A stretch of DNA of 64,000 bases from assembly GCF_024700885.2 (NCBI RefSeq), contig NZ_CP117016.1; one strand, written 5' to 3'. This DNA comes from Escherichia coli. Lineage in GTDB: Bacteria; Pseudomonadota; Gammaproteobacteria; Enterobacterales; Enterobacteriaceae. This document shows, piece after piece, positions 8,268 through 40,261 of this stretch; the first letter of the stretch is position 1, and each line of letters begins with the position of its first letter. Below the pieces are notes generated by a model. It was given only the letters and a program-made list of their open reading frames with translations. It was not told where the DNA came from and did not search any database. Both the position numbers and the translations under genes were made by a program.

Positions 8268-8708
8268 TTACTTAATAACAGTAACCACAGCCACAAGCAC
8301 GGCCATCGCAGACAGGACAATACCTGTGAGTAACCAAGTCTGATTTGCAAATGATTTCTGAAGTTCAGTACGATGCTCAGCCATCTCAACTTTCAGAGAC
8401 TGGCGTAAATCAGCCATCTCAGACTTCAGGGATTGGCGAGATTCTGCCATCTCAAGCCTCAACCCTTCGCGAATCTCCAGTACATCAGATTTGGTAGCAA
8501 AGGATTCGCTTCTTGTGGTGAGAGTAATCAGGTTGTTTTTGATTTCAGTCACATCACTTTCCAGGCAACTGACCCGCCGTTCAAGGTCGTCATTCATGCC
8601 ATCACCTCCATCATTACCACTTCCTGTTACTTGGTTGTTGGATACATTATAGGCATTCTCTTTCTTTTTTCTGAACCGCGAAATATGTGCAACATTCTCT
8701 GCCATCAC
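8268..8708 (-). CDS. Prophage cargo: coiled-coil protein with C-terminal transmembrane anchor and three 11-residue tandem repeats
   Basis: 146-aa ORF (possibly shorter from an internal Met); EMAESRQSLKS/EMADLRQSLKV/EMAEHRTELQK repeats then hydrophobic tail WLLTGIVLSAMAVLVAVVTVIK; ATGA overlap with upstream gene. Confidence 0.55.
   Translation of the reverse strand: MMAENVAHISRFRKKKENAYNVSNNQVTGSGNDGGDGMNDDLERRVSCLESDVTEIKNNLITLTTRSESFATKSDVLEIREGLRLEMAESRQSLKSEMADLRQSLKVEMAEHRTELQKSFANQTWLLTGIVLSAMAVLVAVVTVIK
8378..8476. repeat. Three tandem 33-bp repeats inside the 8268-8708 gene
   Basis: Copies at 8378-8410, 8411-8443 and 8444-8476, read directly from the sequence. Confidence 0.8.
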
Positions 8709-9067
8709 TTCTCATCACCCTGCTTGCCTACCCAGTTCATAAAGGCCCGGGCCGAGTAACGATGAACAAACCCACATCTGTTACAGGTAAGTCGGAATTC
8801 ATAGTTATGGATATTTTCCCGATCATGTCCCTCATATCCCGGATACCCAGTAAATGGACCGATGTAATCAAGCATAACAAAAGTGCCTAAATCACACTCC
8901 TCAGCAGTTTTCGGCTCAGGCCCCACCTCAACAATATTCGTCAAATACATGTACATATCCGTATCGCCACACGACAAACATTTTTCATTCGTAGACGACT
9001 CATTGAGAAAACGCGCAAAATTATCGAGCGTTGCCATTCTTTTAAGCTCATCTAAATGAAACTTCAC
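8705..9067 (-). CDS. Prophage cargo: Cys-rich hypothetical protein (CLSCGD...CNRCG)
   Basis: 120-aa ORF starting 3 nt after the int stop, same strand, so likely co-transcribed with C-int. Confidence 0.5.
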   Translation of the reverse strand: MKFHLDELKRMATLDNFARFLNESSTNEKCLSCGDTDMYMYLTNIVEVGPEPKTAEECDLGTFVMLDYIGPFTGYPGYEGHDRENIHNYEFRLTCNRCGFVHRYSARAFMNWVGKQGDEK

Positions 9068-12400: not shown

Positions 12401-12790
12401 ATGATTGACGCTCATGACTTCACAAGATGGGTGCGCACACAGGACACCCGTCTGGCTCCCATTCTTCGGGGATTATTTGATCTCTACATTCGTGGTCGTG
12501 ACAACAGAGCACGCACCACAAAACCGGAGAATGTGGATACCCTTTATTTCACAGTAGACGACTGCTACCGCGTGGACTTCACACCACACGGACTGGCGTT
12601 GCACTGCCTGACACCGCACGGCGAATCACTGCTGGCGTATTACGACTCCCCGGCCTCCGTATTTGCGGCAATGCTGGCGCATCGCACTGCTGGCGGGTGT
12701 GCCTCGCTGAGTGAATACACCGCTGAGTTTAACCGCCTTTCCGCCCTCTTCTCGCAGGAGTGGCAGCGCGTGACGGGATACCAGCCATGA
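12401..12790 (+). CDS. Prophage early-region hypothetical protein
   Basis: 129-aa ORF whose stop overlaps the A start (ATGA). Confidence 0.45.
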   Translation: MIDAHDFTRWVRTQDTRLAPILRGLFDLYIRGRDNRARTTKPENVDTLYFTVDDCYRVDFTPHGLALHCLTPHGESLLAYYDSPASVFAAMLAHRTAGGCASLSEYTAEFNRLSALFSQEWQRVTGYQP

Positions 12791-15627
12791 GTGAGTTTGC
12801 ATGGAGCTGGAATGAACCACGGCCAGCCATTGATCCGGCCAGATTTACGGAGCGCAGGCAGGAAACTGAAACCGACCTGCAACGCGCCATCCGTTACTAC
12901 CTTGAGGCAGACAAAAAGGCCCAAGAAGAACAGGAAGCGAAAGAGGAAGCCTTTTTCGCACAATCCGCCATGGGTAAAAAACTCATGGCATCCCTTGAGG
13001 AAGCCGGACAGCGTGAAAAGCTGGCACAAAGCATCATCAGTAAGCGCCGGGCAACAGAACAAGACCCGGTGGCCCGTGCCTTTGCCACACTGAAGGTGCT
13101 TCCCGTTTATCTGCGAGAACCCCTGAGCCGCCACCTCTCTTTCCTGCGCAAAAAACAGGAAGCCGATCGCCGGAAAGGCAAAAAGAGCTGGCAGGCGGAA
13201 CGCTATGCACGCGGAACCCTGCGCAAAATATTCGAACGTCTGGATCGCACTGACGGACGCTGGCTGACACAGGGTTATCGCTCCATTGCCGGACGCGAAC
13301 GCCTGGACGATTTGCTTTACCTGCCGCAGCTCAACAAACACCAGGTACAGACACTGGCCACCATGACGGCAGCAATGTTCAGTAGCACATTCGAAAAACT
13401 CTGCGATGGCTTTGGCGCGACCGATGGTGAGCTGACCATGGATGTAACGCTGAAGGCGTATCAGATGCTGGCCCGCATGGCGTTACATCTGCACGCCATG
13501 CCTCCACATTATGACGCACTGACAACAGATAGAGATCGGAGGAACGAACCGGACACAGAGCTGCTGCCAGGCGCAATCCTTCGCCTGACCTGTGCTGAAT
13601 GGTGGAAACGCAAACTGTGGCTATTACGTTGCGAGTGGAGAGAAGAACAACTCCGCGCCGCCTGTCTGGTTTCCAGAAAAACATCGCCCTATCTGAGCCA
13701 GGACGCGTTAAGCGAGTTTCGCGCACAGCGCGAGAAAACACGCGATTTCCTGAAAGGTTTCATGCTGGAAAACGAAGACGGGTTCACGATTGATCTCGAG
13801 ACAGTGTATTACGCGGGAGTAAGTAACCCGGTTCACCGTAAGGCAGAAATGATGGCCACCATGAAGGGGCTGGAACTTCTGGCCGAGGCCCGTGGTGACA
13901 AAGCGGTGTTTCTGACTGTCACCTGCCCGTCAAAATACCACGCCACAACAGAGAACGGTCATCCGAATCCCAAATGGAACGGGGCCACCATGCGCGACTC
14001 CAGCGATTACCTGGTTAACACGTTTTTTGCGGCGGTCCGCAAAAAACTGAACCGCGACGGTCTGCGCTGGTATGGCATCCGCACGGTGGAGCCTCACCAT
14101 GACGGCACCGTGCACTGGCATATGATGGTCTTTGCTCATCCGGAAGAAATCGACAGCATCGTGGCCATCACCCGCGATATTGCCATTCAGGAAGACCGCC
14201 ACGAGCTGGGCAATGATATTACTCCGCGCTTTAAGGTGGAGTATGTCGACGGCTCAAAAGGCACACCAACCAGCTATATCGCGACCTACATCGGAAAAAA
14301 CCTGGACAGCCGCGCCGTGGATGGCATCGACCCGAAAACGGGCAAACCACGCGTTGACCACGAAACAGGTAAATCAATGGCCGAGAGCGTGGAGCGCGCC
14401 ATCGGCTGGGCGCGCCTTCACCGGGTCCGCCAGTTCCAGTTCTTTGGCATCCCCTCCCGTCAGGTGTGGCGTGAACTGCGCCGCCTTGCCAGCCAGATGG
14501 CACGCAACCCGGAAGGCCCGCAACGGCTGAAGGATGACGCAATGGATGCGGTACTCGCTGCCGCTGATGCCGGGTGTTTTGCCTCCTACATTGAAAAACA
14601 GGGTGGCGTACTTGTTCCACGCAAGGACTACCTGATTCGCACCGCCTACGACCTCGCAGATGAGCTGAACGATTACGGCGAACAGAGCGTACAGATTTAC
14701 GGGATCTGGTCACCACTCATCGGGGAATCCTCCCGTGTGTGCACGCACCCGGATAACTGGAAGCTGGTAAGACGTAAACCGGAAGCGGAAGACAGCACCC
14801 GCGAAAATGATTTTGACCTTCAGGGCGGCCCTGCCGCCCCTTGGACTCGTGGCAATAACTGTCCCCGTGTACAGGAAACAGACAACAACGGGACAGAACA
14901 GCCGGAAGAACGGCCAGCACCGTGGCCGCAGCTCCCTGACGGCGTTGAAGTGAACGAATGGATGCATTCACTGAAACGGCACGAACGCCGGGCGCTGATG
15001 CGTTCGCTTCGTGACAAACAGGCAAAAAACAGCAGCGATGAAATGCAGAACTGGACACAGAGCCGCAAACAGCCACAGCCTTTACCTGATAACCACGAGT
15101 TACTCGCTAAAGAATGGCGGGAGTCTGCTGAATCTCTCGGCCTGCATATTGGTGAACAGCAGATGCAGCACCTGTTACGGGGCGGCAGTCTGTACGTTGA
15201 CGGCAGCATCATTGCACCGCAGGGATTTGAAATTGTACGCAAACCGGATACCCGCCCGGACAGCCGAATCACGCAGCTCTGGCAACGCCTGAGCCGTAAT
15301 CACGGCGTAAGCAGCACGGAGATCCGCCATAACCCGGTCGCCAGCTATCTGGAACAGCTGGGGGCATCAGACCCTGAAGCCGCCGCACGCCTGGCATCCA
15401 CACTTCAGCAAGACCAGAACACCATGAAAACCCCCGTTACCGTGCTTTCTGACATGCTGCGCGCCATCCGTGACGCAGAGCACGCACAGAGAATCAGTGA
15501 AACCACTGAACGCGCCCACCGCAAAGCAGACCTGCTGCGGGGTAGCCTGACCAGTGGAAACAAAAAACAGACAGAAACGGGACTCACAAATCCCGTAAAT
15601 GAGCAAAAAACGTGCCGCGATATATGA
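12787..15627 (+). CDS. A: Rolling-circle replication initiator (P2 gpA-like HUH endonuclease)
   Basis: HUH motif region TVHWHMMVFAHPEE and tyrosine motif YIATYIGKN; 946 aa, longer than I recall for P2 A. Confidence 0.8.
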   Translation: MSEFAWSWNEPRPAIDPARFTERRQETETDLQRAIRYYLEADKKAQEEQEAKEEAFFAQSAMGKKLMASLEEAGQREKLAQSIISKRRATEQDPVARAFATLKVLPVYLREPLSRHLSFLRKKQEADRRKGKKSWQAERYARGTLRKIFERLDRTDGRWLTQGYRSIAGRERLDDLLYLPQLNKHQVQTLATMTAAMFSSTFEKLCDGFGATDGELTMDVTLKAYQMLARMALHLHAMPPHYDALTTDRDRRNEPDTELLPGAILRLTCAEWWKRKLWLLRCEWREEQLRAACLVSRKTSPYLSQDALSEFRAQREKTRDFLKGFMLENEDGFTIDLETVYYAGVSNPVHRKAEMMATMKGLELLAEARGDKAVFLTVTCPSKYHATTENGHPNPKWNGATMRDSSDYLVNTFFAAVRKKLNRDGLRWYGIRTVEPHHDGTVHWHMMVFAHPEEIDSIVAITRDIAIQEDRHELGNDITPRFKVEYVDGSKGTPTSYIATYIGKNLDSRAVDGIDPKTGKPRVDHETGKSMAESVERAIGWARLHRVRQFQFFGIPSRQVWRELRRLASQMARNPEGPQRLKDDAMDAVLAAADAGCFASYIEKQGGVLVPRKDYLIRTAYDLADELNDYGEQSVQIYGIWSPLIGESSRVCTHPDNWKLVRRKPEAEDSTRENDFDLQGGPAAPWTRGNNCPRVQETDNNGTEQPEERPAPWPQLPDGVEVNEWMHSLKRHERRALMRSLRDKQAKNSSDEMQNWTQSRKQPQPLPDNHELLAKEWRESAESLGLHIGEQQMQHLLRGGSLYVDGSIIAPQGFEIVRKPDTRPDSRITQLWQRLSRNHGVSSTEIRHNPVASYLEQLGASDPEAAARLASTLQQDQNTMKTPVTVLSDMLRAIRDAEHAQRISETTERAHRKADLLRGSLTSGNKKQTETGLTNPVNEQKTCRDI

Positions 15628-15673
15628 AGCACGCACAAAACAGGCAAAAGAGGGATTTCAGAATCCCGTAAAC
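15561..15673. repeat. Two 40-bp imperfect direct repeats, each with an internal inverted repeat, spanning the A stop and parM upstream region
   Basis: 15561-15600 versus 15634-15673 share 29 of 40 positions and the core AATCCCGTAAA; acggga/tcccgt and gggatt/aatccc dyads. Confidence 0.6.
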
Positions 15674-15703
15674 GGTTAATTAATCAACATAAGGAAAATC
15701 GAC

Positions 15704-16663
15704 ATGAAAATTTGTATCGACGACGGCTCCACCAACATCAAGCTGGCATGGACTGAGAACGGCGAACGCCGCAACGCCATCAGCCCGAACAGCTTCAAGT
15801 CGGAATGGTCTGCGCCGTTCGGTGGCACGCAGCCCGCGAACTACATGCTTGATGGCGTGCGCTATGGTTTTGATCCGGTCAGCGATCGCTTTATCCAGAC
15901 GACCGACACACAATACCAGTACAGCGATGTGAATGTCATTGCCATTCATCACGCGCTGGTCAAATCAGGCATCACGCCACAGGAGGTGGATGTGGTTGTC
16001 ACCCTGCCACTGAGCGAGTATTTCGACACAAACGCACAGCCGGACATGGCCAACATCAACCGCAAAAAAGCAAACGTTATGCGCCCGGTGGAATACCAGA
16101 ACGGCGAAGCATTCACTATCCGTAATGTACGGGTTATGCCTGAATCCATTCCGGCTGGCTTTAAAGCACTGGCTGACATGAGTCCGTTTGAATCCCTGCT
16201 GATTGTGGATTTAGGTGGAACCACGCTGGATGTGGCAAAGGTTCAGGGACAACTGGCAGGTATCAGCCAGGTGTTTTGCGATCCACACGTAGGCGTTTCC
16301 CTGATGGCCGATGCAGTACTGTCGGTGATGGCCACTAACGGTATGCGTACCAGTCACCACATCGCCAATACCATTATCGAACATCGCCATGATGAAGCCT
16401 GGCTGCGCCAGCACATCCACAATGACGCGCATTACGCCAGCCTGATGGCGGTTATTCGTGAAAAGGAAGAAACACTGAAACAACGCGTGATCCGCGCGCT
16501 GGCGGGTTTTTCGGGTTACGGGCGGGTGATGGTTGTCGGTGGCGGGGCGGAGATTGTGGCACCCGCTATCCGCGAAGCCTGCGGAGTTAATGCGACTTTC
16601 ATCGCGGACGGGGTGCCACAGTTTGCTCTGGTTAATGGGCTGTACGCAATGGACAAGGAGTAA
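15704..16663 (+). CDS. ParM/StbA-like actin-family segregation ATPase
   Basis: 319 aa; IDDGSTNIKL, YSDVNVIAIHHAL, VMPESIPAG, LIVDLGGTTLD, VMVVGGGAE, LVNGLY match remembered R1 ParM blocks. Confidence 0.8.
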   Translation: MKICIDDGSTNIKLAWTENGERRNAISPNSFKSEWSAPFGGTQPANYMLDGVRYGFDPVSDRFIQTTDTQYQYSDVNVIAIHHALVKSGITPQEVDVVVTLPLSEYFDTNAQPDMANINRKKANVMRPVEYQNGEAFTIRNVRVMPESIPAGFKALADMSPFESLLIVDLGGTTLDVAKVQGQLAGISQVFCDPHVGVSLMADAVLSVMATNGMRTSHHIANTIIEHRHDEAWLRQHIHNDAHYASLMAVIREKEETLKQRVIRALAGFSGYGRVMVVGGGAEIVAPAIREACGVNATFIADGVPQFALVNGLYAMDKE

Positions 16664-16667
16664 ACCA

Positions 16668-16979
16668 ATGACGACACCAACCAGGCGGATAAGTTTCTAT
16701 CTGAAGCCTGCGGCCGTCAAGAACGAAAGCGAAGCATGCGCCTGGCTGGACAGCCTTACACCGGAAGCCCGCAAAAGCGGCCAACGCGTGGCTTTTCTGG
16801 CCGGGCTGGCACTTCTGAAAATGAATCCGGCAGAGGCTTACCGACTGGCTGCATGGGCTGACGATGAGGCGTTATCAGTGACACAAACCAGGACAGAACG
16901 CCCCCTGTCACAGCCAGTACCAACCGCACAGATAACCAGTCAGATGGCCGGAAATATCAGGGCGTTATTTCCTGAATAA
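16668..16979 (+). CDS. ParR/StbB-like centromere-binding adaptor
   Basis: RRISFYLKP...AFLAGLAL...IRALFP resembles R1 ParR; immediately downstream of parM-like gene. Confidence 0.65.
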   Translation: MTTPTRRISFYLKPAAVKNESEACAWLDSLTPEARKSGQRVAFLAGLALLKMNPAEAYRLAAWADDEALSVTQTRTERPLSQPVPTAQITSQMAGNIRALFPE

Positions 16980-17042
16980 CACAACGTCAGGGCGAGTTCG
17001 CCCTGATCTCCATCTCAGAACATAAACAAGAAGAGCGACTTA

Positions 17043-17426
17043 ATGAGCAAAATCAACTATCAGGCATTACGTGAACGTTATTCACCTGCACCAGTACCAA
17101 AATGCCCTATTTGCTGCGAAGAAATGTCAATTCAGCGAATATCTGGAGCACAGGTTGTTTATGGCTGCTCCGGTTATGGTGATGATGGAGATTTCAAAAT
17201 TGGTCGAACTCTTGCCGACGAACATTATGAAAAATCACGCGTAACAGTGTTGGATGTCGGGGATCCTGAAGTATTGGCGCTACTTGATTGGCTGGAAACC
17301 AAAGACAACCGAATCGCTGAACTGGAAAAAATCGCCACTGACTATGCACTTAAATTCCAGAAAGCACAGGACGCATTAAAGTACGCCGCTTTGCTGCATA
17401 GCAGGTCAGCGCAGCTACAAGACTAA
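17043..17426 (+). CDS. Hypothetical protein with CPICC motif and C-terminal coiled coil
   Basis: 127-aa ORF in the variable region between A and cos. Confidence 0.45.
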   Translation: MSKINYQALRERYSPAPVPKCPICCEEMSIQRISGAQVVYGCSGYGDDGDFKIGRTLADEHYEKSRVTVLDVGDPEVLALLDWLETKDNRIAELEKIATDYALKFQKAQDALKYAALLHSRSAQLQD

Positions 17427-17516
17427 CTTAAAGCGGAAGATTAATACATGGTGAGTCGGGGTAATTTGTTTTTATCCCGACAAATAAACAAAAAAGTGGA
17501 CTATCTCTGTAGTATC

Positions 17517-18047
17517 TTATTCAGCATCGTCTCGTGCAGTCTGTGCATACGTCACAACAACGCCCAATGCATTAGTTTTCTTTTCAACATAGATAATATT
17601 GTCATATTCATAGTTACCATACGGATAGCAAATAAGAATATTTTTATGCAGATCGGGATCATCAACAAACGCTCCGGAACAGCTTCTTGAACTACCGGAT
17701 GTATACTCATACGGTGCAACATATGATGATGTTACTCCTGGTAAAAAATAAGTCACCATCATAAGAGGGATAATCAGGAATATCCCTGTAAGAATGCAAG
17801 AGCCAGCATAAACCTTCAGGTATTCCGACAGTCCTTTCCAGCCACTTTGCTTCACTACCCCCCTCTTCACCAGAAACAAGGAGAAGAAAAAGGACATACC
17901 CATACTACATAAGATGTAATAATTGGATATACGCGAATTAAGATATGTAATCCTGTAGATATCTGCCCTCCACCAGTAAAAGAGGAAAATAATCCCTAGC
18001 ACTGAAACAGTCATGCAAATCAAATAAGGATATGAATCTTTCTTCAT
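17517..18047 (-). CDS. Low-GC prophage cargo: small integral membrane protein
   Basis: 176 aa with 3-4 predicted TM helices, about 25-30% GC, in the P2 tin/old-equivalent position. Confidence 0.55.
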   Translation of the reverse strand: MKKDSYPYLICMTVSVLGIIFLFYWWRADIYRITYLNSRISNYYILCSMGMSFFFSLFLVKRGVVKQSGWKGLSEYLKVYAGSCILTGIFLIIPLMMVTYFLPGVTSSYVAPYEYTSGSSRSCSGAFVDDPDLHKNILICYPYGNYEYDNIIYVEKKTNALGVVVTYAQTARDDAE

Positions 18048-18049
18048 GT

Positions 18050-18577
18050 CTTGCGCTCATTAAAATTTCCCTGCTACGAACAAATTTACCATCCGTTTTT
18101 TGCGCAGAAAACAGCACGATGCACACTGCACGATAGTGCACAAATTTGCACAATTTTTTTGAACGACTTTTTACCCTTCCGGCCCGCATGGCGGCTGGAT
18201 CCGTCAAGGATCCGTGCGTGCACAAAAAAACGCGTTTTTTCTGCGCGCAGGTGACGGGGGAACAGCCCGCGTTTCAGGGGGTAAATAGTATTCCCTGAGC
18301 GATGTCGCAGCGACATAACAGAATGGCCATATTTCTCACGCTGAGCGTGAAAAAGATGTGAGGGCTTTTGATTTGATGGGGTGAAAGGTAAGGCCGTCAA
18401 AATCGAACTGAGGCGGTGAGAACATGCAGTCAGCGCGGTGGGATTGCGTAAGAGTCTGACCGTCGATGATGGTAATAAACAGGAAAGCGTCGTGAAATTA
18501 TCTGATTGATACAGGAGCTGGAGAGTCGGGGCATAAATTTTTTATGCCCCGGCGAAGCAGCGGACAAGCGAAGCGCG
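18050..18577. other. Non-coding region expected to contain the cos site and packaging signals
   Basis: By position immediately upstream of portal Q; contains TGCAC repeats (18120-18151), ggatccgt direct repeats and palindromes; exact cos ends not identified. Confidence 0.35.
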
Positions 18578-19624
18578 TCAGGATGTGGGCTGGGTGTCTA
18601 ACAGTGCGTAAGGGTTAAAGCGAATCACCTCTTCGCCAAGCCAGTCATTGATGTGCTTCATGGCCTCCATGACGGGCATCAGCTCGTTAATTGCGTAAAC
18701 CCGCGCGGCCTTCTCCACATCACCAAACGCACTTTTTTCGCCTGGCATCGCCCCCATCAGTTGCGGCGGAACGCGGTGCGCAGCCAGCACATCATCACGG
18801 GATGCCACCTTAACATTCATGAACTCATCCTTTGCGGTGATCTGCTGGAACGGCAAAATTTGCACCCCCTCTTTGCCACCGTTGGGCGCATGAATGAGCA
18901 CGTTTTTAAACGCACCACCACCACGTGCACCCTGTAGCGTTTCTTTCAGGGAGTCCATGCTTTCGCGGTTTACCTGCGCTGCACCGATGTAGATGATGCA
19001 CCCGGCGTGGGATCCGTTGTCGTAATACAGTTTTCTGAACATGTCCGCCGAATGAGACAGGCTGGCCGAGAGTAATGCGCCGAGATATTCCGGCATGCCG
19101 TAGATTTCCTGGTTAATGTCAGGATTCATCAGGTGGCACACTTTGCCAGGGCGAAACTGAAACGCGTCCTTGCCATCCTGCACATACCACCATGATTCAA
19201 GATCGCTTCCGCGTCGCATGTATTTCGCCAGGGCGTGCCGTAATTTAAGCGGTTCGCCGAGCATATTGCTTCGAAGCTCAAGGAATGCGTTACCGAACAC
19301 AAACCAGTCCAGCGCCAGCGCCGAGAAATCCTGCCGGGAAAGCAACGGGTGCGGGATGTAGCAACCGAGTAATACATTGCGCTTAAAGTAAAGCGCAGAC
19401 TGATGCCAGGACGTTTGCCGGGCAGCTCTTGCCAGACCGTACCAGTCCACCGGGGTTTCATACCACCGCCCGTTATCAGCACAGTACATATTGTCCAGCA
19501 GGTCATGCCCGGTCAGGCGATAAGGACCATCAAATGTGAATGCACTGAGCGATGATTCTTTCCTGAGCGCATCAGCGAGATCAATGCGTGAACTCATGCG
19601 CACTTTTTTATTTTTTCTACTCAT
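18578..19624 (-). CDS. Q: Portal protein (P2 gpQ-like)
   Basis: 348-aa ORF recognised as P2-type portal; adjacent and co-oriented with terminase. Confidence 0.85.
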   Translation of the reverse strand: MSRKNKKVRMSSRIDLADALRKESSLSAFTFDGPYRLTGHDLLDNMYCADNGRWYETPVDWYGLARAARQTSWHQSALYFKRNVLLGCYIPHPLLSRQDFSALALDWFVFGNAFLELRSNMLGEPLKLRHALAKYMRRGSDLESWWYVQDGKDAFQFRPGKVCHLMNPDINQEIYGMPEYLGALLSASLSHSADMFRKLYYDNGSHAGCIIYIGAAQVNRESMDSLKETLQGARGGGAFKNVLIHAPNGGKEGVQILPFQQITAKDEFMNVKVASRDDVLAAHRVPPQLMGAMPGEKSAFGDVEKAARVYAINELMPVMEAMKHINDWLGEEVIRFNPYALLDTQPTS

Positions 19625-21375
19625 CAGAACTCCATAACCGTGAAACGCTCGTTTTCTCCTTCGCCGCCAATTGGTTCGTTAATGACAGCAAGCATGGTTG
19701 CCCACGCAAGGTCGCCGTGGCTGATCCCCCTCGCGCGGTCCGTTTCGTAAGTGATAAAGCCGCCCGGTGTTTTCACCTTACGCACGGCGTTAAAGGCCGC
19801 GACCAGCTCGCGTTCGGCGCGATCGTATTCCCACCGCCCGGCACGCATTATTTGCAGCATTTTCAGTACCAGCGACCGTTTTGATGACAGCGTGAAGGTG
19901 TACGGAATAGCGGCAGGGAAAAACCGTTTCACTATCTGATAAACAGCCTCCCCGTTCCCGCCCGTCACATCAATGCCGATGTGTTCCACGTTGTAGCGAC
20001 ACGTGAACTCTTCAATGACTCTGGCCTGTTCTTCAAACTCCAGCCCCTGAACGCGTCGCGTCTCCACCGTTCGAAAACGGCCACCAGGAACAGACGGAGG
20101 AACCACCACGGACACAGCGCCGCTGTCGCCGTTGCCACTGCTGCCGTTTGCGTCATACCCAATCCATACCGGACGATTCCCCATCGGGCGGGGAGCAAAA
20201 GGTTTCCAGTCTTTCCAGTCGTCGTATCCGTCAACACCGCAGCCAATCAGGATATTCAGGTTAAATGCCGATTCCCCTTCGCGGACAAACTCACACATAT
20301 AGAGATTGAGGAACTCGTCTTCGGTGTTTTCATCACGAATTTCGTCGATATCGGTGTGTTCCCAGCCGTGATTAACCACATCTTCCAGCGTGACAATTTG
20401 CCGCCACGTCCGGTCAGGGCAGATAAGCCCGTTATGCAGCGTTTTCCAGTCCACAGAAAAACGCTGGCGTTTATGCGTGGCCTTTTTCTCGTTCCAGCGG
20501 TCGCCGTTCCAGTAGGCGTATGCCTCGTGCGTTTCGGTGGATGGCGTGGAGAAGTAGGTGCGCCGCAGTCCGCTGAGGGTTGCCATAGCGCCAGCCACCT
20601 TGCGCAGTTCAGCAAAGCGACTGACCCAGAAAAATTCATCAAAATAAAAATTGCCCGTATAGGACTGTGCCGACGCAGCAGAAGTGCCGAGAAAATGCAG
20701 CTCTGCGCCGTTGGAGAGGATGATTTTATCGCCCCCTTTCAGCTCCACATCAACTTCAGCCGCGGCCTTCTGAATAATGCTTTTAAACTGGAACGCCTGA
20801 CGACGCGACGCAGACAAAAAAATCTGGTTACGCTGGTAAGGTTGCGCCACATCGTCACGCAGCGCCATCAGCAGCGCTTCCTGTGCAAAATACCAGGTCG
20901 CCCCAATCTGTCGGGATTTCAGGATCATCCTGTTACGTATCCCTGCTTCCCTGCAAAGGGTCAGGGAGTCAAACCAGCCCCGCTGATGCCACTCCAGCCT
21001 GCTGATGATTTTTTCCCGCAGTGCGGCAATCTGTTCCGGCGTGAAATGATTTTTAAGCTTTTTCGCCCGGCCTTTCTTTCCTGTGGCCGTCGCATCCGGC
21101 TGGCCATCATGCAGTTTTTTAAGCTGCCGGGTCAGCAGGTCTATTTCCTTGAAGTCACCACCTGTTTTATTCTGTTTTTCAGTGAGCTGGATGAGGCGCG
21201 CATCGATGGACTGCGTGACACGCTGCACGGGTGGCGTTTCATCCCACTGGTCGCGTTTTTTCCACGCATAAATCGTGTTCGGGTTTATTCCCATCAGACG
21301 TGATATTTCTGCGGGCGGATAACCCTGCCAGTAAAGTTGCCGCGCACGCTGGCGCACAAAAGCGTCCTGAATCAT
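19624..21375 (-). CDS. P: Terminase large (ATPase) subunit (P2 gpP-like)
   Basis: 583-aa ORF recognised as P2-type terminase ATPase; stop overlaps Q start. Confidence 0.85.
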   Translation of the reverse strand: MIQDAFVRQRARQLYWQGYPPAEISRLMGINPNTIYAWKKRDQWDETPPVQRVTQSIDARLIQLTEKQNKTGGDFKEIDLLTRQLKKLHDGQPDATATGKKGRAKKLKNHFTPEQIAALREKIISRLEWHQRGWFDSLTLCREAGIRNRMILKSRQIGATWYFAQEALLMALRDDVAQPYQRNQIFLSASRRQAFQFKSIIQKAAAEVDVELKGGDKIILSNGAELHFLGTSAASAQSYTGNFYFDEFFWVSRFAELRKVAGAMATLSGLRRTYFSTPSTETHEAYAYWNGDRWNEKKATHKRQRFSVDWKTLHNGLICPDRTWRQIVTLEDVVNHGWEHTDIDEIRDENTEDEFLNLYMCEFVREGESAFNLNILIGCGVDGYDDWKDWKPFAPRPMGNRPVWIGYDANGSSGNGDSGAVSVVVPPSVPGGRFRTVETRRVQGLEFEEQARVIEEFTCRYNVEHIGIDVTGGNGEAVYQIVKRFFPAAIPYTFTLSSKRSLVLKMLQIMRAGRWEYDRAERELVAAFNAVRKVKTPGGFITYETDRARGISHGDLAWATMLAVINEPIGGEGENERFTVMEF

Positions 21376-29786: not shown

Positions 29787-31976
29787 ATGAGTACCACAAC
29801 ACGTAAATTTAAAACCGTTATCACCGATACGGGTGCCAAAAAATTAGCTCAGGCAGCCGCGCCAGATGGTAAGCTTGTCCGCCTGACTCATATGGCCGTG
29901 GGCGACGGTGGCGGTACATTGCCCACACCAGACAGTAAGCAGACCCGTCTGGTGCATGAGGTGTGGCGACATACTGTTAATCGCGTCTTCCTGGACGCAA
30001 CACATCAGAACCGCATTATTGCGGAGCTGGTTATTCCTCCTGAAACGGGCGGATTCTGGATCCGGGAAATTGGTGTATTTGATGAGCACGGCGATTTGAT
30101 CGCGGTTGGCAATACAGCCGAAAGTTACAAGCCAACCGTTGCCGAAGGGTCAGGACGTGCACAAACATTTCGCACCATTCTGACCGTCTCCAGCACTGCC
30201 ACTGTGGCGCTTACCGTGGATAACACCATGGTTATGGCCACAGTGGATTACGTGAATGACAAACTGAAAGAACATGAACAGTCACGACGTCACCCGGACG
30301 CCTCGCTGACCGCAAAAGGCTTTGTTCAACTCAGTAGCGCCACCAACAGCACGTCTGAAGCACTGGCCGCAACGCCGAAAGCGGTCAAGGCAGCCTATGA
30401 CCTTGCTAACGGGAAATATACCGCACAGGACGCCACTATAGCGCGAAAAGGCCTTGTTCAGCTCAGTAGCGCCACCAACAGCGATTCTGAAACGCTGGCG
30501 GCAACACCAAAGGCGGTAAAGGCAGCATATGACCTTGCTAACGGGAAATATACCGCACAGGACGCTACCACAGCGCGAAAAGGTCTTGTCCAGCTCAGTA
30601 GTGCGACCAACAGCACATCCGAAATGCTGGCGGCAACACCAAAGGCGGTAAAGGCAGCATATGACCTTGCTAACGGGAAATATACCGCACAGGACGCTAC
30701 GACAGCACAAAAAGGAATTGTCCAGCTCAGTAGTGCAACCAACAGCGCATCTGAAACGCTTGCTGCGACATCGAAAGCAGTGAAAGCAGCTAATGACAAT
30801 GCGAATGGTCGGGTACCTTCTGCCCGTAAGGTGAATGGTAAGGCGCTTTCAGCGGATATAACACTGACACCGAAAGATATTGGTACGCTTAACTCAACAA
30901 CTATGTCATTCAGCGGTGGTGCTGGTTGGTTCAAATTAGCAACGGTAACCATGCCGCAGGCGAGTTCTGTTGTTTCAATTACGTTGATTGGTGGGGCTGG
31001 ATATAACGTCGGTTCACCTCAACAGGCAGGTATATCTGAACTTGTTTTGCGTGCAGGTAATGGTAATCCGAAGGGGATTACTGGTGCTTTATGGCAGCGC
31101 ACATCGGCAGGGTTTACAAATTTTGCCTGGGTCAATACATCTGGTGATACTTACGATATTTACGTTGCAATCGGAAATTATGCGACTGGTGTAAATATTC
31201 AATGGGATTATACCAGTAATGCCAGCGTAACGATTCATACGTCACCTGCATATTCTGCTAATAAGCCGGAAGGGTTAACGGACGGTACAGTTTATTCACT
31301 CTATACGCCATCAGAGCAGTTTTATCCGCCTGGCGCACCAATCCCGTGGCCATCGGATACCGTTCCGTCTGGTTATGCCCTGATGCAGGGGCAGACTTTT
31401 GACAAATCTGCCTACCCGAAACTTGCAGTCGCTTATCCGTCAGGCGTGATCCCTGATATGCGTGGCTGGACGATTAAGGGCAAGCCCGCCAGTGGTCGTG
31501 CCGTATTGTCTCAGGAACAGGACGGCATTAAATCGCACACCCACAGCGCCAGCGCATCCAGTACGGATTTGGGTACGAAAACCACATCTTCGTTTGATTA
31601 CGGCACTAAATCAACGAATAACACGGGTGCACATACCCACAATGTATCTGGTACTGCAAATAGTGCTGGCGCACATACTCATACCGTTCCATTAAGGAGA
31701 CCAAACAGTGGAGGTATGAATTTCGACTGGCTTGATGGTGCATCAAGTGGCACGGTGGTGGGGAATGGAACTGTGCCTTCTTCTGGCGCACATACCCACT
31801 CAGTATCAGGTACCGCTACAAGTGCTGGGGCACATGCACACACTGTTGGTATTGGCGCTCATACGCACTCTGTTGCGATTGGTTCACATGGACACACCAT
31901 CACCGTTAACGCTGCTGGTAACGCGGAAAACACCGTTAAAAACATCGCATTTAATTATATTGTGAGGCTTGCATAA
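29787..31976 (+). CDS. H: Tail fibre protein (P2 gpH-like) with internal tandem repeats and His-rich C-terminal domain
   Basis: 729 aa; four 44-aa repeats ([15 protein letters not shown]...[15 protein letters not shown]) and C-terminal GAHTH(S/T)V repeats. Confidence 0.85.
30315..30800 (+). repeat. Four tandem 132-bp repeats within tail fibre gene H
   Basis: Units begin at 30315, 30447, 30579 and 30711; the fourth diverges in its second half. Confidence 0.8.
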
Positions 31977-39033: not shown

Positions 39034-40131
39034 ATGACCGACACCACCATGCAATTGCTCAGTCAGGGCACAGACCCCGTGAAAATGCCGGATTTTGATA
39101 TTCTCGCGGAGGGTAAAACGCTGTCAGGCGTGACAGAGCGCCTGATGAGCCTGTCACTGACCGACAACCGGGGATTTGAGGCGGACCAGCTCACCATCAC
39201 GCTGGATGATGCAGATGGTCAGTTGCAGCTACCGCCACGGGGCGCGCGCCTGACGGTTCTCATTGGCTGGAAAGGAGAACCGCTGACAGAAAAAGGCACT
39301 TACATTGTTGATGAAATCGCTCACGAAGGACCGCCGGACAGGCTGACTGTTTCAGCCAGAAGCGCAGATTTTCGGGATGAATTTAACGTTAAACGTGAGG
39401 TGTCCTGGCATGATGTGACCGTTGAGCGTGTGGTATCCGCCATCGCTCATCGGTACGGTCTGAAACCGCAAATCAGCGAAATGCTGATGGATATCGAAAT
39501 CGACCACGCCGACCAGACCGAAGAAAGCGACATGTCCTTTCTTACGCGCATGGCGGAAATGCTGGGCGCAATCACCACGGTAAAAAGCGGTAATCTGTTA
39601 TTCATTATGCCAGGCGGTGGCGTGAACGCACAGGGCCAGCCGTTGCCATCGTTCGCCATCACGCGCAGCAGTGGCGATCGCCATCAGTTCCGCATTGCTG
39701 ACCGCGAAGCGTATACGGGGGTACGCGCTTACTGGCTTGATCTTAATTACGGGAAAAAGAAAAAAGTCAGCGTGAAACGCCGTAAACCGAAAATGGAGAA
39801 AAGCAGTAGCCGTGAAGGCGACTATATGGAAGGTGCGGAAGGCAACGTGTTTGTGTTACGCAAGACTTATCAGAACGAACAGGCAGCAAGACGCGCTGCG
39901 GCGGCAAAGTGGCAGCAGCTACAACGCGGAGCCGCATCATTCTCCATCACACTGGCACGTGGACGCGCAGAACTCTACCCCGAAATGCATGGCACGGTAA
40001 CAGGATTTAAAAGCGAGATTGATAATCAGGACTGGATTATTGCAAAAGCCGAGCACACCATTGATAACAGCGGTTATACCACGCAGCTTGAACTTGAAAC
40101 AAAAATCCCTGAATGGATTGCGCAGACCTAA
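39034..40131 (+). CDS. D: Late control/tail protein D (P2 gpD-like)
   Basis: Start at MTDTTMQ with RBS agggaggg; the track ORF begins far upstream at a non-ATG. Confidence 0.75.
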   Translation: MTDTTMQLLSQGTDPVKMPDFDILAEGKTLSGVTERLMSLSLTDNRGFEADQLTITLDDADGQLQLPPRGARLTVLIGWKGEPLTEKGTYIVDEIAHEGPPDRLTVSARSADFRDEFNVKREVSWHDVTVERVVSAIAHRYGLKPQISEMLMDIEIDHADQTEESDMSFLTRMAEMLGAITTVKSGNLLFIMPGGGVNAQGQPLPSFAITRSSGDRHQFRIADREAYTGVRAYWLDLNYGKKKKVSVKRRKPKMEKSSSREGDYMEGAEGNVFVLRKTYQNEQAARRAAAAKWQQLQRGAASFSITLARGRAELYPEMHGTVTGFKSEIDNQDWIIAKAEHTIDNSGYTTQLELETKIPEWIAQT

Positions 40132-40146
40132 ATGGTGGGAAGATAC

Positions 40147-40185
40147 GGCACAGAGCCAACATAATATACCTGTTTGCTCTGTGCC
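40147..40185. other. Stem-loop (10-bp stem ggcacagagc/gctctgtgcc) between convergent D and the low-GC orphan
   Basis: Inverted repeat read from sequence; no clear U-tract, so terminator function is uncertain. Confidence 0.35.
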
Positions 40186-40261
40186 CGAAATAGGCATCAT
40201 AAACCTAACGATGAATTGATATGCAAGATTATAAAAAATCCGCTGACATTATTTCTCATCG

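Follow-up and report, generated by a model that had tools for sequence, protein, structure and literature searches.

Within a 64,000-nucleotide stretch of the Escherichia coli chromosome (RefSeq contig NZ_CP117016.1; hereafter 'the window'), a P2-like prophage carries, immediately after its replication gene A, a two-gene cassette encoding homologues of the actin-like ATPase ParM and the DNA-binding adaptor ParR of plasmid R1, preceded by a pair of palindromes that resemble a centromere. On balance, and with modest confidence, we read this as a genuine type II (R1-type) ParMRC partition cassette, a long-standing accessory module of P88-like (Xuanwuvirus) and related P2-like phages that would act on transient circles of phage DNA. 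The homology of both proteins, the conservation of their motifs, the purifying selection on the cassette, and the fact that the cis sites exist, are unique and are conserved across lineages are direct observations; by analogy with R1, ParR would bind these sites, ParM filaments would move the bound DNA, and an extrachromosomal form of the phage genome would be the substrate.

The two genes themselves have been recorded before. RefSeq and GenBank already annotate both, as ParM and as a partition protein. Rousset et al. 2022 reported a putative plasmid partitioning system in about a quarter of P2-like phages (PMC9122126), Pfeifer et al. 2021 classed P88 as a putative phage-plasmid because of its partition system (PMC7969092), and the PhiSM paper lists the gene as cargo (PMC6456863). 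Given these annotations and suggestions, the identification of the cassette is correct but already known. Rousset et al. and Pfeifer et al. present no centromere, selection or phylogeny analysis of the system and no experiment (PMC9122126, PMC7969092), and our literature searches for experimental work on ParM of P88, Xuanwuvirus or P2-like phages found none. The present analysis adds a candidate centromere, in which a phased A-tract array that extends into the 3′ end of gene A holds two GGG-N10-CCC palindromes; it also separates this centromere from the replication origin and indicates that the cassette is ancient across one whole clade of P2-like phages.

Identification of the ParM and ParR homologues

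The window is a segment of the E. coli chromosome with 100% identity over the query to strain E-1246 and others. Its prophage is of the P88 type, spans about 34 kb (window positions ~8,100-42,400) and is inserted between btuC and ihfA. It encodes its own integrase and repressor, an early operon in which replication gene A is the last gene, and leftward portal and terminase genes at 18578-21375. Directly 3′ of gene A and on the same strand lie two open reading frames (ORFs), separated from each other by a 4-nt gap:

12787-15627, + strand: gene A, P2-type replication endonuclease (RefSeq start; the ORF opens at 12760; named 'replication endonuclease' in RefSeq)
15704-16663, + strand: parM, actin-fold ATPase of 319 aa, expected by homology to polymerise (Pfam, phmmer, BLASTP)
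16668-16979, + strand: parR, ribbon-helix-helix adaptor of 103 aa (Pfam PF10784, profile search)

The product of the first ORF after gene A matches the Pfam families StbA_N (E = 3.3e-82) and ParM C-terminal domain (E = 2e-68). Searched against solved structures with phmmer, it matches R1 ParM (1mwk) and others over residues 2-316 (E = 1.2e-92), and BLASTP aligns it with R1 ParM at 46% identity across 318 aa. The phosphate-binding motif DDGSTNIK, the glutamate of MPESIPAG, and the motifs DLGGTTLD and GGGAE are all present and identical to those of R1 ParM in the pairwise alignment. The nucleotide-binding residues D6, D7, G8, S9, T10 and K13, E147, D169-G-G-T-T and G279-G-G are moreover invariant in 14 phage-clade homologues. 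In the NCBIfam search ParM gave only sub-threshold matches (19 bits to the PRK13917 ParM model against a cutoff of 417, and 22 bits to PRTRC_D); these equivalog models belong to other ParM subfamilies, so that the scores are no evidence against ParM homology. In two IMG/VR loci (L056 and L088) the ParM match covers 1380 bp rather than 957 bp, which suggests an insertion of ~420 bp within parM.

The second ORF is shorter and more divergent in sequence. It matches the Pfam family Plasmid_stab_B (PF10784, E = 2.2e-24), and its N-terminal 56 aa share 34% identity with R1 ParR (E = 2e-8). A single-sequence search of solved structures with ParR found nothing, and the match needed a family profile: one built from eight ParRs matches the ribbon-helix-helix structure of pB171 ParR (2JD3) with E = 9e-17. 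No ParR match was found in the NCBIfam search. At its N-terminus the protein has a DNA-binding strand (TRRISFYLKP), which a linker of variable sequence joins to a conserved C-terminal tail (..NIRALFPE). In a set of 50 ParR alleles of P88-like phages, the N-terminus (MTTPTRRISFYLKP) is conserved, as is the C-terminal motif ..NI(R/Q)A(L/F)FPE, whereas the linker is hypervariable. Written as x-N-(A/I)-x-x-(L/F)-F-P, this C-terminal motif can be aligned with KKNAMKLIN at the end of R1 ParR, with N96 invariant; in R1 ParR this C-terminal tail is the ParM-binding peptide. The sequence-only reading, made from the letters and their translations, had likened the two ORFs to R1 ParM and to ParR and had posed a database homology check in advance; that check, as reported above, returned significant matches for both proteins.

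The IMG/VR P88-like loci carry at least three divergent parR allele families (103-104 aa) with unrelated linkers, all paired with a ~99% identical ParM. The N-terminal 18 residues and the C-terminal motif are near-identical among the families, and there is a mosaic breakpoint near window position 16722.

A candidate centromere overlapping the end of gene A

Two imperfect direct repeats with internal dyads had been described on either side of the gene A stop codon, and we recovered them as a pair of 39-nt segments, 15561-15599 and 15634-15672, which are 74% identical and 73 bp apart. The dyad inside the first is ACGGGACTCACAAATCCCGT (15577-15596) and that inside the second is GAGGGATTTCAGAATCCCGT (15650-15669). 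As the stop codon of gene A occupies 15625-15627, repeat 1 falls within the final 16 codons of the gene, and repeat 2 belongs to the spacer between A and parM. The resulting features are:

15555-15690, + strand: parC-like candidate centromere/operator region holding both palindromic sites (phased A-tract array, period ~10.4 bp)
15577-15596, no strand assigned: site 1, 20-bp palindrome ACGGGACT-CACA-AATCCCGT, within the 3′ end of gene A
15650-15669, no strand assigned: site 2, 20-bp palindrome GAGGGATT-TCAG-AATCCCGT, in the A-parM spacer, 35 bp upstream of the parM ATG

The population consensus of both sites, taken from 68 unique upstream sequences of IMG/VR P88-like phages, is ACGGGATT-N4-AATCCCGT; in this set the GGG and CCC cores are nearly invariant and the central N4 is variable. 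Allowing up to three mismatches, the pattern ACGGGATTNNNNAATCCCGT occurs at only two places in the 64 kb, namely the two sites, against a chance expectation of 0.15, and two matches were reached in 1 of 100 shuffles. The palindromes are embedded in strand-specific A-tracts that are phased at 10.4 bp over ~130 bp, and the AAA periodicity power of this region is the highest of 6387 test windows along the 64 kb. As a control, the same test placed R1 parC at rank 1 of the 322 windows of its locus, with a period of 10.5 bp; the upstream regions of a Serratia phage homologue (L006) and of a 93%-identity relative (L098) also rank first. Phage loci from Plesiomonas and Hafnia likewise carry two GGG-N10-CCC dyads, 71-73 bp apart, upstream of parM, with the first one inside the upstream gene.

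Their location upstream of parM, their uniqueness, the paired dyads in diverged homologues and the A-tract phasing together support the view that the repeats act like a parC-type centromere/operator. The sequence-only reading had left the choice between such a centromere/operator and the A-dependent origin. The first half of that proposal is supported by the unique paired dyads and the 10.4-bp phasing. The second half is not supported, as the match to the nick-site sequence of P2 lies ~0.7 kb away from the repeats (15561-15672), on their upstream side:

14826-14862, + strand: P2 ori nick-site homologue, probable A-dependent origin, inside gene A and separate from the repeats

The P2 record places the ori nick site at 29892, within gene A. 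P2 GCGGCATCGCCGCGCCTCGGAGTCCTGTCAATAACTGT aligns to window GCGGCCCTGCCGCCCCTTGGACTCGTGGCAATAACTGT, and a protein alignment puts the same residues there. The gene A protein itself matches phrog_91 of the PHROG database ('nicking at origin of replication', 2.6e-276) and is 31% identical to P2 A (E = 7e-80). At ~946-955 aa it is longer than P2 A (761 aa), and ~200 of its C-terminal residues are without counterpart there; the final 16 codons of the gene also serve as centromere-like site 1.

Distribution, phylogeny and selection

Near-identical DNA is present in phage P88, Xuanwuvirus P884B11, phage 520873, Citrobacter phage PhiSM and others; relative to P88 and other Xuanwuvirus genomes, the cassette is 96-100% identical in protein and 96.5-97.8% in DNA. 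Near-identical DNA also occurs in 1374 of 5426 complete E. coli genomes (25%), where 1543 of its places are chromosomal and 2 are on plasmids. In the phage collection, ParM homologues are found only in Xuanwuvirus and in the P1-like plasmid prophage D6 (48% identity). The protein search recovered homologues with 54-63% identity from Plesiomonas, Hafnia, Serratia and Enterobacter. Each of them has its place in a P2-like prophage, after a Phage_GPA gene and before the portal gene, with a PF10784 ParR next. The 93%-identity relative shows the same A-parM-parR-portal arrangement, and those homologues of ≤52% identity that were checked lie in plasmid or integrative and conjugative element (ICE) contexts. 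In a neighbour-joining tree, built without bootstrap values, all phage ParMs form one clade apart from the plasmid ParMs, including that of R1.

The ratio of nonsynonymous to synonymous polymorphism (pN/pS) of parM is 0.066 over 70 alleles, and 83 of 84 copies are intact. The GC content of parMR (0.52-0.55) equals that of the phage backbone, as had been noted from the sequence alone: gene A and the late genes have 0.53-0.58, and the 1.5 kb that follow the cassette have 0.41-0.43. The accompanying suggestion that the cassette is integral to this phage lineage and not a recent moron is supported by the matching GC content, the monophyletic clade found after gene A in five host genera and the low pN/pS. 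These observations point to a functional, anciently resident module, not a relic or a recent moron.

An exact-peptide-word scan of genome contigs returned near-identical copies only, in E. albertii, a Citrobacter metagenome-assembled genome (MAG) and a 'Collinsella' contig. The last of these (JAIJJM010000298.1) is a 3.7-kb contig in a MAG of Collinsella (Actinobacteria) with a 98% identical, E. coli-type parM, and is most likely a binning error.

Proposed mechanism and substrate

The cassette presents a puzzle: it is intact, under strong purifying selection and found in 25% of complete E. coli genomes, yet it has no obvious use once the phage is integrated. In the mechanism that we propose, a ribbon-helix-helix dimer of ParR would bind the curved, A-tract-phased centromere/operator at ~15555-15690, its targets being the two GGG-N10-CCC palindromes, which are separated by seven helical turns, with one in the final codons of A and one just upstream of parM. 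The conserved C-terminal tail of ParR would then capture the ends of ATP-dependent ParM filaments, and the growing filaments would push ParR-tagged DNA molecules apart. Since the phage is almost always integrated, the likely substrate is a transient extrachromosomal circular genome. Such circles could be supplied by circularisation of the genome after infection, by excision, or as monomeric circles from A-dependent rolling-circle replication. The cassette abuts the early replication operon, is co-oriented with it and has no strong promoter of its own, so it could perhaps be expressed together with that operon, although we attach little weight to this.

By analogy with srpMRC and AlpAC (see below), the most likely role of the cassette would be to segregate or position these transient phage circles. 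More specifically, and only tentatively, it may be a positioning machine for the phage genome, in which ParM filaments spread rolling-circle monomers through the cell or deliver a genome that is unintegrated or excised to each of the two daughter cells. If so, the cassette should measurably increase the burst size, the frequency of lysogenisation or the retention of the prophage. In about a quarter of E. coli strains there would then be a working actin-like cytoskeleton of viral origin, the first to be characterised in a temperate phage of Gram-negative bacteria, and the two-palindrome centromere lying partly within a replication gene would be a variant of parC. Knowledge of the role could tell a hidden episomal phase of P2-like phages from the use of an actin-like motor in replication, as in CGP3 of Corynebacterium and, after excision, in SXT/R391 ICEs. 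As P88 is inducible and assays for R1 ParMRC exist, the system should be easy to study.

Several points weigh against this interpretation. There are two clear specific sites only, as opposed to the ten 11-bp direct iterons that flank the promoter in R1 parC, and a scan of the A-parM interval with the sigma-70 consensus found no promoter. The Serratia and Enterobacter phage loci have a different upstream layout, a long inverted repeat. As between positioning in the lytic phase and inheritance of an episome, the present data favour neither. The β-strand of ParR does, however, vary with the type of site, being TRR(I/V)SFY or, in Serratia and Enterobacter, NRKISFY, which is the pattern expected if ParR reads these sites.

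A weak candidate promoter (TTCAGA, 16 nt, ATTAAT, overlapping site 2) can be picked out by eye, its sole support being the partial conservation of TTAATCAA in three lineages.

Alternative explanations

A dual lifestyle was proposed by Rousset et al. 2022 (PMC9122126) and by Pfeifer et al. 2021 (PMC7969092); the phage-plasmid ancestry, episomal forms and intracellular positioning raised in the sequence-only reading are reasonable ideas, but the same suggestion was already in print. Under this dual lifestyle, P88-like phages would be facultative phage-plasmids, and ParMRC would keep a stable low-copy episome where integration fails. A complete P88-like genome with integrase, parMR and hok, from an E. 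coli isolate of a cat, has indeed been deposited as a 'plasmid' in the form of a circle of 34,461 bp (NZ_CP148288.1), a 32-kb Plesiomonas contig is made up of phage alone, and the P2-like Burkholderia phage KS14 has been found experimentally to be a plasmid prophage, albeit with ParA and not ParM (PMC3091744). We nevertheless consider this explanation unlikely. Among complete E. coli genomes, 1543 of the 1545 places are chromosomal. In 431 of 431 genomes that have the integrase type of the circular record the attP junction is split, and an integrase was found at every locus whose retrieved sequence extended to the integration end. The study that produced the circular record also yielded a human isolate with a 99.9% identical phage integrated in its chromosome (NZ_CP148378.1), and circular records can arise from spontaneous induction. 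The P2 immunity repressor shuts off the A/B replication operon, so that a repressed episome would not replicate. The copy in the window, integrated between btuC and ihfA and equipped with an integrase, is not the autonomous prophage replicon by which a phage-plasmid is defined. The only replication module seen is the P2-type rolling-circle initiator A, no search aimed at a copy-controlled plasmid module having been made; Pfeifer et al. 2021 scored P88 as having 'plasmid-like replication' (PMC7969092). A decaying relic of plasmid ancestry, devoid of present function, might be suspected from the apparent dispensability of a partition system in an integrated phage and from the damaged tail genes of this prophage copy. 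The pN/pS of parM, the near-complete set of intact copies, the invariant catalytic motifs of ParM and the unchanged location of the cassette in five host genera, with protein identities of 54-63%, make it very improbable.

The cassette might instead serve competition or lysogenic conversion, with resident ParR and ParM acting in trans on incoming phages or plasmids (incompatibility, exclusion), or with a chromosomal centromere affecting the handling of the host chromosome. Its location is the gpA-gpQ hotspot, where anti-phage systems abound (PMC9122126), and its several divergent ParR alleles combined with near-identical ParM recall conflict-driven genes. Such a role nonetheless appears improbable: ParM, ParR and the two downstream ORFs match no PADLOC family at E ≤ 0.1, it is the linker of ParR that varies while its DNA-binding N-terminus and the sites are conserved, and the fixed position and backbone GC content across genera are unlike those of the downstream hotspot cargo. 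The repeats, in turn, could be hairpins at the RNA or DNA level (antisense terminators, or an RNA element of the A-parM junction) or part of an origin, in place of a centromere. On the minus strand, T-runs follow both dyads and both score as terminator-like, and as RNA the repeat region folds better than shuffled sequences (z of -3.2 and -4.1). The two hairpins, however, share the arm sequence itself, beyond what pairing alone would call for. In the 68 unique sequences, the local stems show 0 compensatory changes and 42 broken pairs, with GGG/CCC cores almost invariant, and we reject the hairpin reading because of this lack of covariation. In addition, Rfam gave no match within 15000-18600, the P2 nick-site homologue lies 0.7 kb upstream of the repeats, and a separate hairpin after parR already shields the cassette from leftward transcription. 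We give this explanation scant credence.

Comparison with known systems

Among the known systems closest to the cassette is parMRC (stbAB) of R1/R100, with which it shares the order centromere, parM, parR. Its ParM is 46% identical to that of R1 over the full length and has the same ATPase motifs, its ParR has the same ribbon-helix-helix N-terminus and a similar C-terminal tail, and its centromere-like region, directly upstream of parM, is an A-rich array phased at 10.4-10.5 bp. R1 parC, taken from a plasmid with a 100% identical ParM, consists of two blocks of A/C-rich 11-bp direct iterons, five in each block, whereas the phage region has two 20-bp palindromes 73 bp apart, unlike the iterons in sequence. 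Half of the phage region moreover lies within the coding end of a replication gene, with no clear internal promoter found. The phage cassette resides in an integrated P2-like prophage, that of R1 on a plasmid, and the phage ParMs form a separate clade. From the cassette of P88/Xuanwuvirus it differs in nothing substantive.

Two systems are the nearest precedents in function. The srpMRC system of SXT/R391 ICEs was shown to stabilise the excised, transient, rolling-circle-replicating form of the element (Carraro et al. 2015, PMC4489591). Here too an actin-type partition system is found in a normally integrated element, and the adaptor recognises repeats, both direct and inverted, ahead of the M gene (PMC4489591); SrpM is, however, distant from ParM, SrpR has no homology to ParR and the host element is an ICE, whereas the phage proteins are canonical R1-type. 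AlpAC of the Corynebacterium glutamicum prophage CGP3 is, as reported, required for excised phage DNA to be transported and to replicate efficiently (PMC4446434, PMC5539076). With its site alpS, it likewise pairs a prophage-encoded actin-like filament with a DNA-binding adaptor that has sites in its own upstream region, but it belongs to another actin-like family in a Gram-positive host, and the likeness drawn here is one of layout and reported role. Among phages, the P1-like D6 carries StbA, the only other ParM homologue in the phage collection (48% identity), and the P2-like Burkholderia phage KS14, with ParA, demonstrates that a P2-like phage can lysogenise as a plasmid (PMC3091744). Both of these are extrachromosomal prophages, unlike the phage described here, which has an integrase and is integrated.

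Boundary of the cassette and neighbouring genes

The downstream limit of the cassette coincides with a hairpin just past the parR stop codon, found in a scan for terminator-like structures:

16987-17006, no strand assigned: GC-rich hairpin TCAGGGCGAACTCGCCCTGA

Homology among P88-like phages stops at ~16974-17030, and the GC content falls from ~0.55 to ~0.41 after 17000. The hairpin looks like a recombination boundary between the conserved cassette and the variable, low-GC gpA-gpQ hotspot. The hotspot cargo in the window (17043-18047) appears degraded and neither of its genes has a PADLOC match: 17043-17426 is a truncated ead/Ea22-like gene, annotated as a pseudogene in RefSeq, and 17517-18047, on the minus strand, is a frameshifted membrane-protein gene of phrog_1416, a family of unknown function.

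At the integrase end, two small ORFs of unknown function (phrog_9415 and phrog_4293) lie at 8268-9067 on the minus strand, between the btuC-side attachment end and the integrase, and are probably prophage-end cargo. In the tail region (39290-41416), the RefSeq annotation of an identical strain lists a partial pseudogene, a short VgrG/gpD-family gene of 262 aa and an opposite-strand hypothetical gene of 384 aa; this region appears damaged, so that the prophage copy may be defective, though parMR is intact. A gene for a Hok/Gef family toxin (42075-42215) adjoins ogr at the ihfA-side end of the prophage and is also present in the circular 34.5-kb record NZ_CP148288.1; a post-segregational killer of this kind beside a partition cassette is a plasmid-like combination. 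Farther downstream, the interval ~50433-64000 holds a P-loop NTPase gene (50433-52175) and, beyond it, a second prophage, of lambdoid type (tail fibre, Lom, gpJ, tape measure), which continues to the end of the window.

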